Positions 19,434 to 26,013 of a stretch of 64,000 bases of DNA are shown in pieces (the first letter of the stretch is position 1; every line of letters starts with the position of its first letter). Source of the DNA: Escherichia coli (GTDB lineage: Bacteria; Pseudomonadota; Gammaproteobacteria; Enterobacterales; Enterobacteriaceae). The translations under genes and the position numbers were made by a program. The stretch lies in NCBI RefSeq assembly GCF_044324875.1, contig NZ_CP172185.1; one strand, given 5' to 3'. The notes under the pieces are model-generated. The model did not search any database, was not told where the DNA came from, and saw only the letters and a list, made by a program, of their open reading frames with translations.

Positions 19434-20015
19434 TTAACCAAAAATTTCCACAAGATGCTTGCGATATTCTTCAGTATAGCGGGGAACATCAGGCATTTTT
19501 ATCACGTCATTAGCGATAAATGTCGGCAGCGGTTCCATGCCAAGGAATTGGTTTGCTTTATGGAACGGCAGATACACACCGTCAACGCCAACGCCGTGGA
19601 AGAACTGATCTTTTTCGGTGAAGGCTTCCATTGGTGCGTTCCAGGTCAGAGAAAGCATATATTTTTTGCCCTGTACCAGGCCGCCGGAACCGTATTTTTT
19701 CGACGGATCTTTGCGGGTACGACCATCGCTGGCATACAGCGTCCCGTGACCTTCGGTGAATACATCATCAATGTATTTTTTCACTGTCCACGGCGCGCCC
19801 ATCCACCAGCCTGGCATCTGCCAAATCACCACATCAGCCCAGAGAAAGTTTTGTACTTCCGCTTTGACATCGTAGTCGCTGTCGGCGCGAACGATGCGGA
19901 CATCATGCCCGAGGTCGCGCAGTGTGCCATCCGCGACTTCGGTCAGGGTGTCGTTCAGTTGACCATTGGAGTGGGCGAATTTTTTCGCGCCGTTGATAAT
20001 TAGGATGTTGCTCAT
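19434..20015 (-). CDS. mdaB: NADPH:quinone oxidoreductase MdaB
   Basis: 193-aa ORF beginning MSNILIINGAKKFAHSNGQLN; flavodoxin-like fold protein. Confidence 0.9.
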   Translation of the reverse strand: MSNILIINGAKKFAHSNGQLNDTLTEVADGTLRDLGHDVRIVRADSDYDVKAEVQNFLWADVVIWQMPGWWMGAPWTVKKYIDDVFTEGHGTLYASDGRTRKDPSKKYGSGGLVQGKKYMLSLTWNAPMEAFTEKDQFFHGVGVDGVYLPFHKANQFLGMEPLPTFIANDVIKMPDVPRYTEEYRKHLVEIFG

Positions 20016-20075
20016 TTTTTAACCTCAAGGTGAGACGTTTGTCGACTATAGTACGTCACAGAGCGGTACGGTGAA

Positions 20076-20118
20076 ATTAGCAAAATGTGCAAAGTCTTTT
20101 GCTAATTTAGCAAAAGTC
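20076..20118. promoter_or_regulatory. Inverted/direct repeat element in the mdaB upstream / qseC downstream spacer
   Basis: attagcaaaa ... ttttgctaat inverted repeat with an additional ttagcaaaagtc copy; may be an mdaB operator and/or qseC terminator. Confidence 0.3.
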
Positions 20119-20124
20119 TTACCC

Positions 20125-21474
20125 TTACCAGCTCACCTTCGCCTCAAATCCACGTTGTTCCGCATTCCCAAACTCAACATTCATGCCATGCAATTTGGCG
20201 ATTCGCTGGACAATCGATAGCCCAAGTCCACTGCCGGTAGCGGTTTGTCCGGGTGGGCGATAGAAGCGTTCGCCAATTCTCGCCAGTGCCTCTGGCGTCA
20301 CACCGGGGCCGTTATCCCTCACGATGAAACTATCGGCATTCAGCGTGACGTCCACCACGCTGCCCTGTGGACTGTAGCGCACGGCGTTATCCAGAAGGTT
20401 TCGTACCAACAAACTTAGCAACAGCGGTTGTCCGGTGCGTTTGATGCCGTGGGCATTGAGTGTCAGTCGCACGTCAATTTTCGCCTGCTGCGCCGTGTGG
20501 TAAATATCCATCACCGATGATTGCAGGAGATCTTCAAGCGGGATCTCCGCGACGTCCTGAAGGTTATCCAGTGAGTCCAGCCGCGATAGCGTGAGCAGTT
20601 GATCAACCAGACGAGTAGCACGATCGATTCCGGAATGTAATTGAAGCAGCGCTTTTTTCCGCGCCTGCGGATCATCGTCAGAGAGCTGCGCAACTTCGGT
20701 TTGCACTTTCAGCGCCGTTAACGGGCTACGAAGTTCGTGAGCTGCGTCGGAGGTAAAGCGTCGTTCTCGAACCATCATCGCATGTGTGCGGGCGAACAGT
20801 TGATTCAACGACTCAACCAGTGGACGCACTTCGCTGGGTACGCCCGTCGCGTTTAGTGGTTTTTCCGAGTCAGGGTCACGCATACGTAGTGCCAGCGCCA
20901 GTTTGTTCAGCGGCGCGAGTTCACGACCCAGTAGTACCATCATGATGATTAACATAATCGGCAGTGCGACAAGCCACGGGATCAATTGCCCTGCAACAAT
21001 CGCCAGCGCCATGTCTTCGCGGTATTCCCATTCCTGACCAACAACGATGCGATATTTGCCATCAGGTGAGGTCATCCAGACAAAACGCCAGGGATCGTCT
21101 TCACCGACCAGTTGCCCGTCAGCAAAACCTTCCCGTTGATAGCTATAGGGAATATCTTCTCCGTTATCGCCATCGTTAAGGACCATTCTGCCGTCGTGGG
21201 TAAAGATGGCAAAGGTTAGCGCATCGTCATCAACATGACCGTGTTTTAATTTATTTGGCGTCTGTGCCATGCGATCTGCCGCGTTGATTTCGTTGAGATC
21301 GAGCGTACTTAACCGCTTGGCAAACAGCATCAGTTGGGTGTCGAACAACTCATCGACGTTATCCGTTGTTTGTTTCCAGGCGACAAAGCTGGAAAGCAGC
21401 CAGGTCACTGAGGCCAGAATTAAAAAGATTAGCGTCAGCCTGACTCGCAGACTAAGACGTTGGGTAAATTTCAT
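20125..21474 (-). CDS. qseC: Sensor histidine kinase QseC
   Basis: 449-aa ORF with two transmembrane segments, H-box ([12 protein letters not shown]) and ATPase motifs; overlaps the qseB stop. Confidence 0.95.
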
Positions 21475-22281: not shown

Positions 22282-22674
22282 ATGAAAAAATTCGCAGCAG
22301 TAATCGCAGTAATGGCCCTGTGCAGCGCACCGGTGATGGCAGCAGAGCAGGGCGGTTTTTCTGGCCCATCGGCAACGCAAAGTCAGGCCGGAGGATTCCA
22401 GGGGCCGAACGGCAGCGTAACGACCGTAGAAAGCGCAAAATCCCTGCGTGACGACACCTGGGTAACCCTGCGCGGCAATATCGTTGAACGCATCTCTGAC
22501 GATCTCTACGTGTTCAAAGATGCCAGCGGTACTATCAATGTTGATATCGACCACAAACGCTGGAACGGCGTGACGGTGACGCCGAAAGATACGGTTGAGA
22601 TTCAGGGTGAAGTCGATAAAGACTGGAATTCTGTTGAAATTGACGTCAAACAGATCCGCAAAGTAAATCCGTAA
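22282..22674 (+). CDS. ygiW: Periplasmic OB-fold stress protein YgiW
   Basis: ORF 22225..22674 trimmed to MKKFAAVIAVMALCSAPVMA (signal peptide, RBS aaggga); 130 aa. Confidence 0.9.
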   Translation: MKKFAAVIAVMALCSAPVMAAEQGGFSGPSATQSQAGGFQGPNGSVTTVESAKSLRDDTWVTLRGNIVERISDDLYVFKDASGTINVDIDHKRWNGVTVTPKDTVEIQGEVDKDWNSVEIDVKQIRKVNP

Positions 22675-22726
22675 TTGTTACCGCTCCCGGGACACATTCC
22701 CGGGAATAATTTCGCAGGGAGGCAAA

Positions 22727-23209
22727 ATGACAAACCTGACACTGGATGTAAATATTATCGATTTCCCATCAATCCCTGTGGCGATGTTGCCGCACCGCTG
22801 TAGCCCTGAGTTGCTCAACTACAGCGTGGCGAAATTTATCATGTGGCGTAAAGAGACGGGGCTTTCTCCTGTTAACCAAAGCCAGACTTTTGGCGTCGCC
22901 TGGGATGACCCTGCCACCACCGCACCGGAAGCGTTTCGCTTTGATATCTGCGGCAGCGTTAGCGAACCGATCCCCGATAATCGTTATGGTGTGAGTAATG
23001 GTGAACTTACCGGTGGACGTTATGCTGTGGCCCGCCATGTTGGCGAGCTGGACGATATTTCACACACGATATGGGGCATCATTCGCCACTGGCTACCTGC
23101 AAGCGGCGAGAAAATGCGTAAAGCACCGATTCTGTTTCACTACACCAATCTTGCCGAAGGGATGACAGAGCAGCGACTGGAAACAGATGTTTATGTGCCG
23201 TTGGCGTGA
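22727..23209 (+). CDS. ygiV: GyrI-like small-molecule-binding protein YgiV
   Basis: 160-aa ORF following ygiW after a short palindromic spacer. Confidence 0.8.
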   Translation: MTNLTLDVNIIDFPSIPVAMLPHRCSPELLNYSVAKFIMWRKETGLSPVNQSQTFGVAWDDPATTAPEAFRFDICGSVSEPIPDNRYGVSNGELTGGRYAVARHVGELDDISHTIWGIIRHWLPASGEKMRKAPILFHYTNLAEGMTEQRLETDVYVPLA

Positions 23210-23754
23210 TGAAGAATCTTTACCGGAGTGTGAGCCAAATCACTCGCGATAAGTTTGAGCGAATAATGCCACAGGCGTATTGTTGTTGGGCTTATAATTT
23301 CTCCGGTAAGGAATACCATGTATACGCGAAATTTATTATCCGGTGCGCCGTAAGCCGTCTCGAGGGTACCCATGAGCAGGCCGCACTTATGGCAGGAGGC
23401 GCGGGGCACAGGTGGAGACACTGCTAAGCTGGGCTGAACCGTATACTTACAGACGACTACTTTGATGCTTTAGGCTTCCCTGGACTCGCATAACCTCAAC
23501 TTCTCGAATCGCCCGGTGCGGACCCGCATGCCGAGTGGTGTGGCATGGGCGCAACCTTGTGTTGCCCCCTATGCCGATCAAGTCTACAGCAAAGAGTTGT
23601 ATATCAAGACACATTGATGTCTTTATCGCCGTCGGAGCACGTCCGGCGGCGCTATTCACGCTGATCTCCTGTGACTCGACGCGGCAGATAATGTAGTATC
23701 TCCGGCAATATTGCCCCTTTGAAGGCTGGCGAATAAGTTGAGGAATCAGAATTA

Positions 23755-26013
23755 ATGAGCGATATGGCAGAGCGCCTTGCGCTACATGAATTTACGGAAA
23801 ACGCCTACTTAAACTACTCCATGTACGTGATCATGGACCGCGCGTTGCCGTTTATTGGTGATGGTCTGAAACCTGTTCAGCGCCGCATTGTGTATGCGAT
23901 GTCTGAGCTGGGCCTGAATGCCAGCGCCAAATTTAAAAAATCGGCCCGTACCGTCGGTGACGTACTGGGTAAATACCATCCGCACGGCGATAGCGCTTGT
24001 TATGAAGCGATGGTCCTGATGGCGCAGCCGTTCTCTTACCGTTATCCGCTGGTTGATGGTCAGGGGAACTGGGGCGCGCCGGACGATCCGAAATCGTTCG
24101 CAGCAATGCGTTACACCGAATCCCGGTTGTCGAAATATTCCGAGCTGCTATTGAGCGAGCTGGGGCAGGGGACGGCTGACTGGGTGCCAAACTTCGACGG
24201 CACTTTGCAGGAGCCGAAAATGCTACCTGCCCGTCTGCCAAACATTTTGCTTAACGGCACCACCGGTATTGCCGTCGGCATGGCGACCGATATTCCACCG
24301 CATAACCTGCGTGAAGTGGCTCAGGCGGCAATCGCATTAATCGACCAGCCGAAAACCACGCTCGACCAGCTGCTGGATATCGTGCAGGGGCCGGATTATC
24401 CGACTGAAGCGGAAATTATCACTTCGCGCGCCGAGATCCGTAAAATCTACGAGAACGGACGTGGTTCAGTGCGTATGCGCGCGGTTTGGAAGAAAGAAGA
24501 TGGCGCGGTGGTTATCAGCGCATTGCCGCATCAGGTTTCAGGTGCGCGCGTACTGGAGCAAATTGCTGCGCAAATGCGCAACAAAAAGCTGCCGATGGTT
24601 GACGATCTGCGCGATGAATCTGACCACGAGAACCCGACCCGTCTGGTGATTGTGCCGCGTTCCAACCGCGTGGATATGGATCAGGTGATGAACCACCTCT
24701 TCGCAACCACCGATCTGGAAAAGAGCTATCGTATTAACCTCAATATGATCGGTCTGGATGGTCGTCCGGCGGTGAAAAACCTGCTGGAAATCCTCTCCGA
24801 ATGGCTGGTGTTCCGCCGCGATACCGTGCGCCGCCGACTGAACTATCGTCTGGAGAAAGTCCTCAAGCGCCTGCATATCCTCGAAGGTTTGCTGGTGGCG
24901 TTTCTCAATATCGACGAAGTGATTGAGATCATTCGTAATGAAGATGAACCGAAACCGGCGCTGATGTCGCGGTTTGGCCTTACGGAAACCCAGGCGGAAG
25001 CGATCCTCGAACTGAAACTGCGTCATCTTGCCAAACTGGAAGAGATGAAGATTCGCGGTGAGCAGAGTGAGCTGGAAAAAGAGCGCGACCAGTTGCAGGG
25101 CATTTTGGCTTCCGAGCGTAAAATGAATAACCTGCTGAAGAAAGAACTGCAGGCAGACGCGCAAGCCTACGGTGACGAACGTCGTTCGCCGTTGCAGGAA
25201 CGCGAAGAAGCGAAAGCGATGAGCGAGCACGACATGCTGCCGTCTGAACCTGTCACCATTGTGCTGTCGCAGATGGGCTGGGTACGCAGCGCTAAAGGCC
25301 ATGATATCGACGCGCCGGGCCTGAATTATAAAGCGGGCGATAGCTTCAAAGCGGCGGTGAAAGGTAAGAGCAACCAACCGGTAGTGTTTGTTGATTCCAC
25401 CGGTCGTAGCTATGCCATCGACCCGATTACGCTGCCGTCGGCGCGTGGTCAGGGCGAGCCGCTCACCGGCAAATTAACGTTGCCGCCTGGAGCGACCGTT
25501 GACCATATGCTGATGGAAAGCGACGATCAGAAACTGCTGATGGCTTCCGATGCGGGTTACGGTTTCGTCTGCACCTTTAACGATCTGGTAGCGCGTAACC
25601 GTGCAGGTAAGGCTTTGATCACCTTACCGGAAAATGCCCATGTTATGCCGCCGGTGGTGATTGAAGATGCTTCCGATATGCTGCTGGCAATCACTCAGGT
25701 AGGCCGTATGTTGATGTTCCCGGTAAGCGATCTGCCGCAGCTGTCGAAGGGCAAAGGCAACAAGATTATCAACATTCCATCGGCAGAAGCCGCGCGTGGA
25801 GAAGATGGTCTGGCGCAACTGTACGTTCTGCCGCCGCAAAGCACGCTGACCATTCATGTTGGGAAACGCAAAATTAAACTGCGTCCGGAAGAGCTACAGA
25901 AAGTCACTGGCGAACGTGGACGCCGCGGTACGTTGATGCGCGGTTTGCAGCGTATCGATCGTGTTGAGATCGACTCTCCTCGCCGTGCCAGCAGCGGTGA
26001 TAGCGAAGAGTAA
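23755..26013 (+). CDS. parC: DNA topoisomerase IV subunit A
   Basis: 752-aa ORF; GyrA/ParC N-terminal catalytic region (active-site AAMRYTE region) and C-terminal beta-pinwheel. Confidence 0.95.

Follow-up and report, generated by a model that had tools for sequence, protein, structure and literature searches.

The gap between ygiV and parC in an mqsRA-less Escherichia coli: a probable scar of ygiS left by IS609 and a group II intron

Introduction

In Escherichia coli K-12 MG1655 the gene order is ygiV-mqsR-mqsA-ygiS-parC, and a preliminary description of a 64,000-nucleotide stretch of E. coli contig NZ_CP172185.1 (the window) had rightly placed mqsRA and ygiS between ygiV and parC in that strain. 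In the window only about 545 bp lie between the two outer genes, and the question raised by this locus is what this short interval consists of, and whether the missing genes were lost from it or had never been there. The preliminary description had regarded the interval as unassigned, and had offered either a deletion scar or an ancestral state as its origin. Chromosomal toxin-antitoxin (TA) modules are regarded as horizontally acquired in a passage of the TA literature (PMC5120126), and a pan-genome paper places ygiS and mqsRA among the variably present genes (PMC11390585). Here, the interval was aligned with other genomes, its parts were assigned by homology, and the states of the locus were counted in 5426 complete E. 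coli genomes.

Results

Layout and breakpoints of the ygiV-parC interval

Both flanking genes lie on the + strand, ygiV at 22727-23209 (97.7% identity to K-12) and parC at 23755-26013, and both borders were given by the ORFs and by RefSeq annotation in matching genomes. By these ORF coordinates the gap is exactly 23210-23754, and the spacing of 545 bp stated earlier was borne out. Alignment of the window with K-12, O157:H7, O111:H8 and AST85, using blastn and MAFFT, placed breakpoints at 23217, 23339/23340 and 23581/23582, and all parts of the gap described below read on the + strand.

Homology of the ygiV side to K-12 extends to 23211 in blastn and in the five-genome alignment. The mqsRA empty site (23210-23216) consists of a T and GAAGAA, at a place where K-12 has ~0.93 kb with mqsR, mqsA and their terminator. 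It is followed by the upstream (promoter) region of ygiS (23217-23317), homologous to the K-12 mqsA-ygiS intergenic region, and by ygiS nt 1-22 (23318-23339), the last four of which are TTAT (23336-23339), the target tetranucleotide of IS609. Across 23217-23339 the window was 99% identical to K-12 in blastn, and the residual ygiS ATG now starts an ORF of 11 codons, MYTRNLLSGAP and a stop. K-12 is without the next 242 bp (23340-23581), and K-12-type sequence was found again from 23582 onwards by blastn and alignment. It begins with ygiS nt 1573-1608 (23582-23617), which are the last 11 codons and the stop, and which directly follow a TTAT in intact ygiS. The two tips of ygiS (22 and 36 nt) together with the upstream region retain 98-99% identity to K-12, and the remainder of the gap (23618-23754) is an ordinary ygiS-parC intergenic region and parC leader, near-identical in K-12, O157:H7, O111:H8 and AST85. 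The right-hand BLAST match reached further, to 23576, because GAT is present by chance in both sequences; between this GAT and GTCTACAG, every intact ygiS examined has TAT, whereas the window has CAA.

The GC-rich palindromes pointed out in the preliminary description exist, and correspond to domains V and VI of a group II intron (see below) and to two hairpins near the ygiS stop codon, one around and after it (23603-23626) and one downstream in the intergenic region (23627-23651). Scanning the gap for promoter and terminator consensus sequences gave the same counts as in shuffled sequences. The absence of mqsRA and ygiS also stood, as there is zero mqsR or mqsA sequence and ygiS is reduced to its two tips. 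The label 'unassigned' did not, since all 545 bp could be assigned by alignment and homology. The gap is an ordinary and largely already-known polymorphism that is fully explained and contains neither a new gene nor a new system.

Absence of mqsRA is ancestral while ygiS was lost

Neither blastn nor alignment found similarity to K-12 mqsR or mqsA in window positions 22700-24000. Outgroups were sought by a YgiV peptide-pattern scan of species-representative genomes, which recovered five loci, all of them Escherichia, and none from E. fergusonii or other genera, so that only a few outgroups could be compared. In O157:H7, E. albertii, E. whittamii and a cryptic-clade genome, ygiV is followed by the ygiS upstream region after 6-13 nt, and the short junction (GAAGAA, GGGGAA or similar) was seen in O157:H7, O111:H8, AST85, E. 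albertii, E. whittamii and SCPM-O-B-8794. Moreover, E. albertii, E. whittamii and the divergent SCPM-O-B-8794 have the order ygiV-ygiS-parC without mqsRA, and their ygiS is full-length. With this order in the outgroups, the lack of mqsRA is the original condition, whereas ygiS has been lost. These comparisons show that the ancestral Escherichia order was ygiV-ygiS-parC, and that mqsRA was inserted later, on the branch that led to K-12-like strains; the lineage of the window never received it. Each of the two origins offered at the outset accordingly holds for one part of the gap: the ancestral state for mqsRA, by the outgroup junctions, but not for ygiS, and the deletion scar for ygiS, by its retained tips and the intact gene of the outgroups.

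Most of the insert is the 3' part of a class C group II intron

A sensitive search matched the 242-bp insert to group II introns on plasmids of Sinorhizobium, Polaromonas, Cupriavidus, Rhizobium and E. coli. Positions 23354-23578 were 93% identical to the 3'-terminal stretch of an E. coli intron (L020) that is full-length and has its ltrA intact, and 75-80% identical to the plasmid introns of Polaromonas, Cupriavidus and Rhizobium; the Polaromonas match spans the end of ltrA and ~80 nt downstream of it, i.e. the 3' end of that intron. The full-length intron measures ~1.83 kb; homology to such copies begins at 23354, with ~225 nt to go to the 3' end, and what is left in the window is the last 225 nt. 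The 5' GUGCG and domains I-IV are absent, with no D1-D4 Rfam match in window positions 22600-24000. The 3' end of the intron was placed at GAT (23578), as a second intron abuts there in a Polaromonas tandem (GAT followed directly by GTGCG).

The frame that starts at 23341 translates into RCAVSRLEGTHEQAALMAGGAGHRWRHC, a stop, AGLNRILTDDYFDALGFPGLA and a second stop. In this frame, 23354-23493 is a remnant of the C-terminus of the intron reverse transcriptase (RT)/maturase, comprising the last ~46 codons with one nonsense codon (23425-23427) ahead of the natural stop (23491-23493). Over residues 413-455 of Polaromonas LtrA, a protein of 456 aa which itself scores 413 bits against TIGR04416 (cut-off 300), the remnant shows 60% identity (E 2e-15). 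It is also a close match to the C-terminus of the intact E. coli LtrA of L020; the remnant alone matches no NCBIfam model.

Downstream of the coding remnant, folding and pair counts identified the hairpin of domain V (23508-23539), with a CGC triad, a 2-nt GC bulge and one C-A mismatch from decay, and the hairpin of domain VI (23542-23575), with a candidate branch-point A at 23571 ahead of the intron terminus ...GCCGAU at 23578. In an alignment of 10 homologous copies 93% of the cells in domains V and VI were paired, as against 36-54% in slid controls. Five pairs of the two domains had changed on both sides, a number that was reached in 4 of 500 shuffles, and the compensatory changes in domain V of intact introns run from C-G to U-A and G-C. 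RF00029 (domains V and VI) went unmatched in Rfam scans of 1.4 kb at E up to 1 and of 131 nt at E up to 10. Among the intact Polaromonas introns, intron 1 went undetected and intron 2 reached 35.6 bits (gathering 40); since intact relatives are also missed or under-scored, RF00029 is insensitive to this intron lineage. The sole Rfam match in the gap scans was a chance snoRNA over the 3' end of ygiV.

Class C introns habitually insert right after a hairpin. The 5' end of the relatives, GTGCG, follows directly on a terminator hairpin and T-run in Cupriavidus (TTTTTTT, then GTGCG), and on a hairpin and AGGATGT in Polaromonas and E. coli. Insertion after a stem-loop was seen in the relatives L016, L004, L003 and L020, and the 5' exon of the window copy is deleted.

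Part of this fragment has been catalogued as E.c.F12, a class C group II intron fragment of 118 bp that is '79% similar to P.s.I1' and is recorded in IAI1, SE11, E24377A, 55989 and Shigella (Leclercq & Cordaux 2012, PLoS One 7:e52268; Tables S2, S3). I found that E.c.F12 of E. coli IAI1 (NC_011741 3251207-3251324, minus strand) lies inside the ygiV-parC gap and equals window positions 23461-23578, with 114 of 118 positions identical and the same GAT end. There is no mention of ygiS, ygiV or parC in the main text and supplementary tables of that study, and the passages on ygiS in two papers on mqsRA and TA systems (PMC5120126, PMC6918082) do not describe a ygiS scar. An RmInt1-like class D intron, which the many matches to Sinorhizobium plasmids had suggested, was ruled out by the class C label of 2012, the CGC triad and the after-hairpin sites of the relatives.

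Both deletion ends carry the signature of IS609

A full-length chromosomal relative of the intron was present in only 3 of the 5426 genomes. In the full-length E. coli copies, on plasmid pHum4b and in Polaromonas, the intron starts ~40 nt downstream of an IS200/IS605 tnpB, and the tnpA-tnpB part of the intron-bearing unit is IS609, an element present in 5015 of 5426 genomes. Directly after TTAT, the left end of intron-less IS609 reads CCGGTGCGCCGTAAAACCCC and continues into a hairpin, and the right end consists of a hairpin and AGGATGTCAA, with the terminus ...GGAGGATGTCAA. The intron homes between ...GGATGT and CAA, at a site 3 nt from the right end of the IS. An empty-site test of the IS609::intron unit of L020 found its joined flanks contiguous in 456 genomes and the unit to extend from just after TTAT to CAA; the first flanking base is T, as opposed to C in the empty sites, which leaves a 1-nt ambiguity at the right boundary.

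In the window, the TTAT of ygiS nt 19-22 is followed by CCGGTGCGCCGTAA (23340-23353), and this is the exact IS609 left end, in register, of a K-12 derivative (L025) and of O157:H7 (L026). Only these first 14 nt remain, the left-end hairpin being gone, and the 14-mer has one match in the 64-kb window where 0.01 would be expected by chance. The right junction reads ...GAT, CAA and GTCTACAG, and comparison with other copies and with IS609 right ends identified CAA (23579-23581) as the last 3 nt of the element. CAA stands directly 3' of the intron in 6 of the 10 related copies listed, with a different flank each time, and its flank in the window is unlike the flanks of every other copy; 3 nt are weak alone, and take their weight from the other copies and from the TTAT context. 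A TTAT also occupies nt 1569-1572 of intact ygiS, a motif which a random end-point would meet with a chance of 1 in 256. With TTAT both at ygiS nt 19-22 and at nt 1569-1572, IS609 activity appears to have defined both deletion ends. Only intron lies between 23353 and 23579; the subterminal hairpins of IS609 (CCCCATCCTTCAGGGCGGGG type), tnpA and tnpB are absent there, and with hairpins and tnpA/tnpB gone the IS609 remnant is immobile. A search for intermediates in the 5426 genomes yielded no IS609 left end at ygiS nt 1572 and no right end beside ygiS nt 23.

The scar is frequent, old and apparently neutral

Three states of the locus account for most of the 5426 genomes. The K-12-like order ygiV-mqsRA-ygiS-parC was found in 2298 (mqsRA in 42%), the scar arrangement of the window in 1353 (25%), and most of the remaining ~1770 have ygiV-ygiS-parC, as in O157:H7. 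The latter two states share the same mqsRA-less junction of 6 nt (GAAGAA or GGGGAA) in place of ~0.93 kb. Rarer arrangements also exist, and ygiS was lost independently at least three more times, namely by deletion in AST85 and by decay in Escherichia sp. E1V33 and in MOD1-EC7003.

The scar itself occurs as two alleles. That of the window is common to phylogroup-D-like strains (e.g. 042 and PCN033), and the other, from B1 strains and Shigella (O111:H8, IAI1), is collinear with it and has identical junctions. The two differ at 4.6% of the intron-fragment sites, compared with 6.2% of third codon positions in ygiV and 4.1% in parC, and two changes in domain V of the B1 allele break pairs and are non-compensatory. 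Taken together, the identical junctions, the synonymous-like divergence and the uncompensated changes in domain V indicate that the scar has a single, old origin and has been decaying neutrally since. Judged by this decay and by the neutral divergence, the latter counted over only 11 substitutions, the scar is probably inert. Its present-day effect would be that of a ygiS null allele, in which the ygiS promoter is predicted to read into the 11-codon ORF and the dead intron while the parC leader is untouched.

Discussion

Proposed origin of the scar

Very probably, the gap is the wreck of ygiS left by an IS609 copy that carried a class C group II intron, and amounts to an inert scar as opposed to a gene or system. 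The junction sequences show that an IS609 copy sat in ygiS with the intron in its usual homing site, 3 nt from the right end. The IS609 left end abuts TTAT at ygiS nt 19-22, and CAA abuts ygiS nt 1573, which comes after another TTAT in the intact gene; ygiS nt 23-1572 would hence have been removed by an event specified by IS609. Two routes are conceivable. TnpA of IS609 might have cleaved and joined single strands between the two TTAT sites, or two IS609 copies, one at each TTAT, might have recombined by homology. A second, internal deletion fused nt 14 of the IS609 left end to a point in the RT/maturase coding region of the intron and took with it both IS hairpins, tnpA, tnpB and intron domains I-IV. 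Because only the last 225 nt of the intron are left, the remnant can neither transpose nor splice.

The route through TnpA can be put forward tentatively, as a possibility rather than the expected outcome: TnpA may have cut at the end of IS609 and, 1.55 kb along the same strand, at another TTAT, and linked the two cut sites to each other, while the ygiS strand between them was excised as a circle. If true, this would be a natural case of the single-strand 'peel' chemistry of IS200/IS605 elements deleting a chromosomal gene, with the deletion later fixed in a quarter of E. coli.

Alternative readings of the gap

Could the whole interval predate both acquisitions, neither ygiS nor mqsRA ever having been in the lineage? 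The mqsRA half of this reading holds, as the junction without mqsRA is common to O157:H7 and three outgroup species, yet for ygiS it was refuted by the retained gene tips: the first 22 nt, the last 36 nt and the upstream region persist at 98-99% identity, and full-length ygiS stands at the same position in E. albertii, E. whittamii and SCPM-O-B-8794. As an account of the whole interval it is scarcely credible. Equally implausible is that the short ORFs are new small proteins or a replacement TA pair. ORFs of 70-76 aa do exist on both strands, as had been noted, one of 76 aa (23191-23421, - strand), one of 73 aa (23206-23427, + strand) and one of 70 aa (23447-23659, - strand), but a search for TA and other protein families against PADLOC and NCBIfam gave no match to any of the three at E up to 1, and in none of the 60 closest genomes does PGAP call a CDS there. 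The 73-aa ORF is chimeric, running from the stop region of ygiV through the ygiS promoter into the dead RT C-terminus, where the nonsense mutation ends it; over the final 28 codons it shares the reading frame of the intron RT/maturase C-terminus, so that the earlier statement of 'no recognisable similarity' fails for this ORF. The other two are antisense to the relics, and divergence is at a neutral rate. The short ORFs are almost certainly spurious. The resemblance to an IS5 terminal repeat concerned the 17-mer GAAGGCTGGCGAATAAG at 23721-23737, ~20 nt upstream of the parC start, and might be taken for a solo IS5 repeat marking an IS5-mediated deletion. The likeness is real in that GAAGG-T-GCGAATAAG agrees with the IS5 end at 15 of 16 bases with two 1-nt gaps, and only 0.7% of random 54-mers from the window score equally. 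The 17-mer is, however, identical in K-12, O157:H7, O111:H8 and AST85, with or without an intact ygiS, and belongs to an invariant parC leader; neither an IS5 body nor a partner repeat was found, other IS5 matches in the gap being 9-11 nt long with E above 0.1, and the 17-mer lies outside both deletion junctions. Its invariance and position refuted IS5 as the cause of the gap, and the likeness stands without the scar; there is hardly any chance that it marks the deletion. Were the 17-mer an IS5 end that became fixed long ago throughout Escherichia, it would still have no bearing on the ygiV-parC polymorphism.

Two further readings start from the intron fragment itself. The intron might have retrotransposed on its own near the 3' end of ygiS, with an illegitimate deletion then removing the bulk of ygiS along with the 5' portion of the intron and IS609 playing no role, which would suit the intact intron 3' end at 23578 and the resumption of ygiS a few bases on. 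A reverse-spliced intron leaves its 3' exon unchanged, and CAA follows the intron here where every intact ygiS examined has TAT; the left junction shows, after TTAT, 14 nt that match the IS609 left end exactly; and class C introns of this lineage follow a hairpin, while ygiS has none at the right distance. Direct intron insertion with deletion, in which abortive reverse transcription or microhomology joining would have supplied CAA, was rejected on the strength of the IS609 ends, and is very improbable. A somewhat better, although still low, chance attaches to the remnant having been kept for a function, for example as an RNA from the ygiS promoter that carries domains V and VI and modulates parC, or to the loss of YgiS having itself been selected. 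The scar is old and frequent (25% of genomes) and ygiS was lost repeatedly and independently in AST85, E1V33 and MOD1-EC7003; furthermore, loss of ygiS could help in bile, because YgiS is reported, in a passage of PMC6918082, to promote import of deoxycholate. Against this, the two domain V changes of the B1 allele are non-compensatory, the intron fragment diverges at the rate of synonymous sites, nothing ties a remnant RNA to parC, and selected loss of ygiS would account for the deletion but not for any role of the residue. The IS609 wreck with its intron is the preferred reading.

Implications

What follows for annotation is a tidier locus: 242 bp can be labelled as a dead IS609::group II intron remnant and no new gene call is needed, a result of little wider weight. 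For physiology, ygiS emerges as a recurrently lost accessory gene. With a quarter of strains being natural ygiS nulls and over half being without mqsRA, the polymorphism is relevant to studies that tie mqsRA and ygiS to bile (deoxycholate) tolerance. The record of E.c.F12 is extended by its host IS, and the locus provides a plausible case of a gene deletion specified by an IS200/IS605 element. Of the intron piece, 118 of 225 bp were already catalogued; the one mildly novel point is that both deletion ends in ygiS bear an IS609 signature.

Comparison with known systems

Compared with the K-12 ygiV-mqsR-mqsA-ygiS-parC locus, the window has the same flanking genes, ygiS upstream region and parC leader, and differs in having 6 nt for ~0.93 kb of mqsRA and a ygiS cut to 22 and 36 nt. 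With E.c.F12 it shares locus and sequence, including orthologues in B1 strains and Shigella, but the catalogued 118 bp compare with 225 intron-derived bp here, flanked by IS609 termini and ygiS tips, and the 4.6% diverged allele described here belongs to phylogroup-D-like strains outside the strain list of 2012.

Class C (IIC) introns, which home after stem-loops, have in common with the window copy what is left of the RT/maturase C-terminus, a domain V with the CGC triad, and domain VI. The hairpin preceding the relatives is a terminator in Cupriavidus and an IS609-type right-end hairpin in E. coli and Polaromonas. The window copy, in contrast, lacks its 5' exon as well as domains I-IV, retains very little of the ORF, and has a nonsense codon and a domain V mismatch; the missing parts together with these two defects make it a dead fragment.

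In the IS608 paradigm, insertion takes place 3' of TTAC, and a TCAA placed 10 nt beyond the hairpin closes the right end (PMC3201880). Of its element the window keeps no more than 14 nt at the left and 3 nt at the right, and the IS609 target is TTAT where that of IS608 is TTAC. The likeness to this paradigm lies in insertion 3' of a tetranucleotide, no target duplication, a left end that matches, and a right end that finishes in (T)CAA 10 nt past the hairpin.

Apparent repeated loss of ygiS and a neighbouring polymorphism

Loss of ygiS appears to be recurrent. Degraded copies of the gene were found in E. coli AST85 (comparison locus L008, 3872-4208), Escherichia sp. E1V33 (L011, 3716-4143), and Escherichia sp. 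MOD1-EC7003 (L009, 5554-5925), three more cases besides that of the window, independent and with different breakpoints. A separate observation concerns strain CP52E (search match H96), where an IS1 transposase is annotated inside the mqsRA-ygiS stretch. In the window itself, the ygiS start codon opens an 11-codon ORF, MYTRNLLSGAP* (23318-23353), which is preceded by the intact ygiS upstream region and extends into the left-end remnant of IS609; this short ORF is probably without meaning.

Close to the ygiV-parC gap lies another small polymorphism of presence and absence, that of ygiZ. The interval between mdaB (19434-20015) and qseC (20125-21474) spans only 20016-20124 in the window and carries no ygiZ, lacking ~590 bp that are found in AST85 and K-12, with ~5 nt at the junction. 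In AST85 the missing segment corresponds to L008 197-786, with ygiZ inside it at 409-741. On the other side of the gap, the ParC protein of the window (23755-26013) is wild type at the quinolone-resistance-determining residues S80 and E84.

Relatives and derivatives of the intron

The E. coli IS609 copy that carries a full-length intron (L020, strain MFDS1022581, 1147-4334) has a tnpB that is ~390 bp shorter than in a typical IS609. Directly to the right of this copy the flank starts with T, whereas all three of the empty sites examined, where the two flanks stand joined with the element absent, have C.

Shorter derivatives of the same intron, of ~480 bp, were present on many E. coli plasmids, both F-type and others (search matches H186-H210; for example NZ_CP021729.1, 10074-10555). 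They matched the 1.8-kb intron query at 95% identity over 27% of its length, and since they did so only in two pieces near the two ends of the query, they lack the middle of the intron, with its ORF. A separate 125-bp piece of the intron 3' end, at 84% identity, was found on ~200 plasmids.

Downstream of a tnpB on plasmid 2 of Polaromonas sp. JS666 (L004, 1877-5590), I found two introns of this family in direct tandem: the terminal GAT of the first abuts the GTGCG of the second, and the second intron is in turn followed by CAA. The arrangement suggests that the same IS right-end site was homed into repeatedly.

In the K-12 segment L019 (NC_000913.3, 273000-276000), the reverse-transcriptase-domain gene ykfC (PF00078) of prophage CP4-6 adjoins IS5A. 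Among the entries in Table S2 of Leclercq & Cordaux is E.c.I4-tr1, a group II intron fragment of 1764 bp that K-12 strains carry in this prophage; ykfC and E.c.I4-tr1 may be the same gene.
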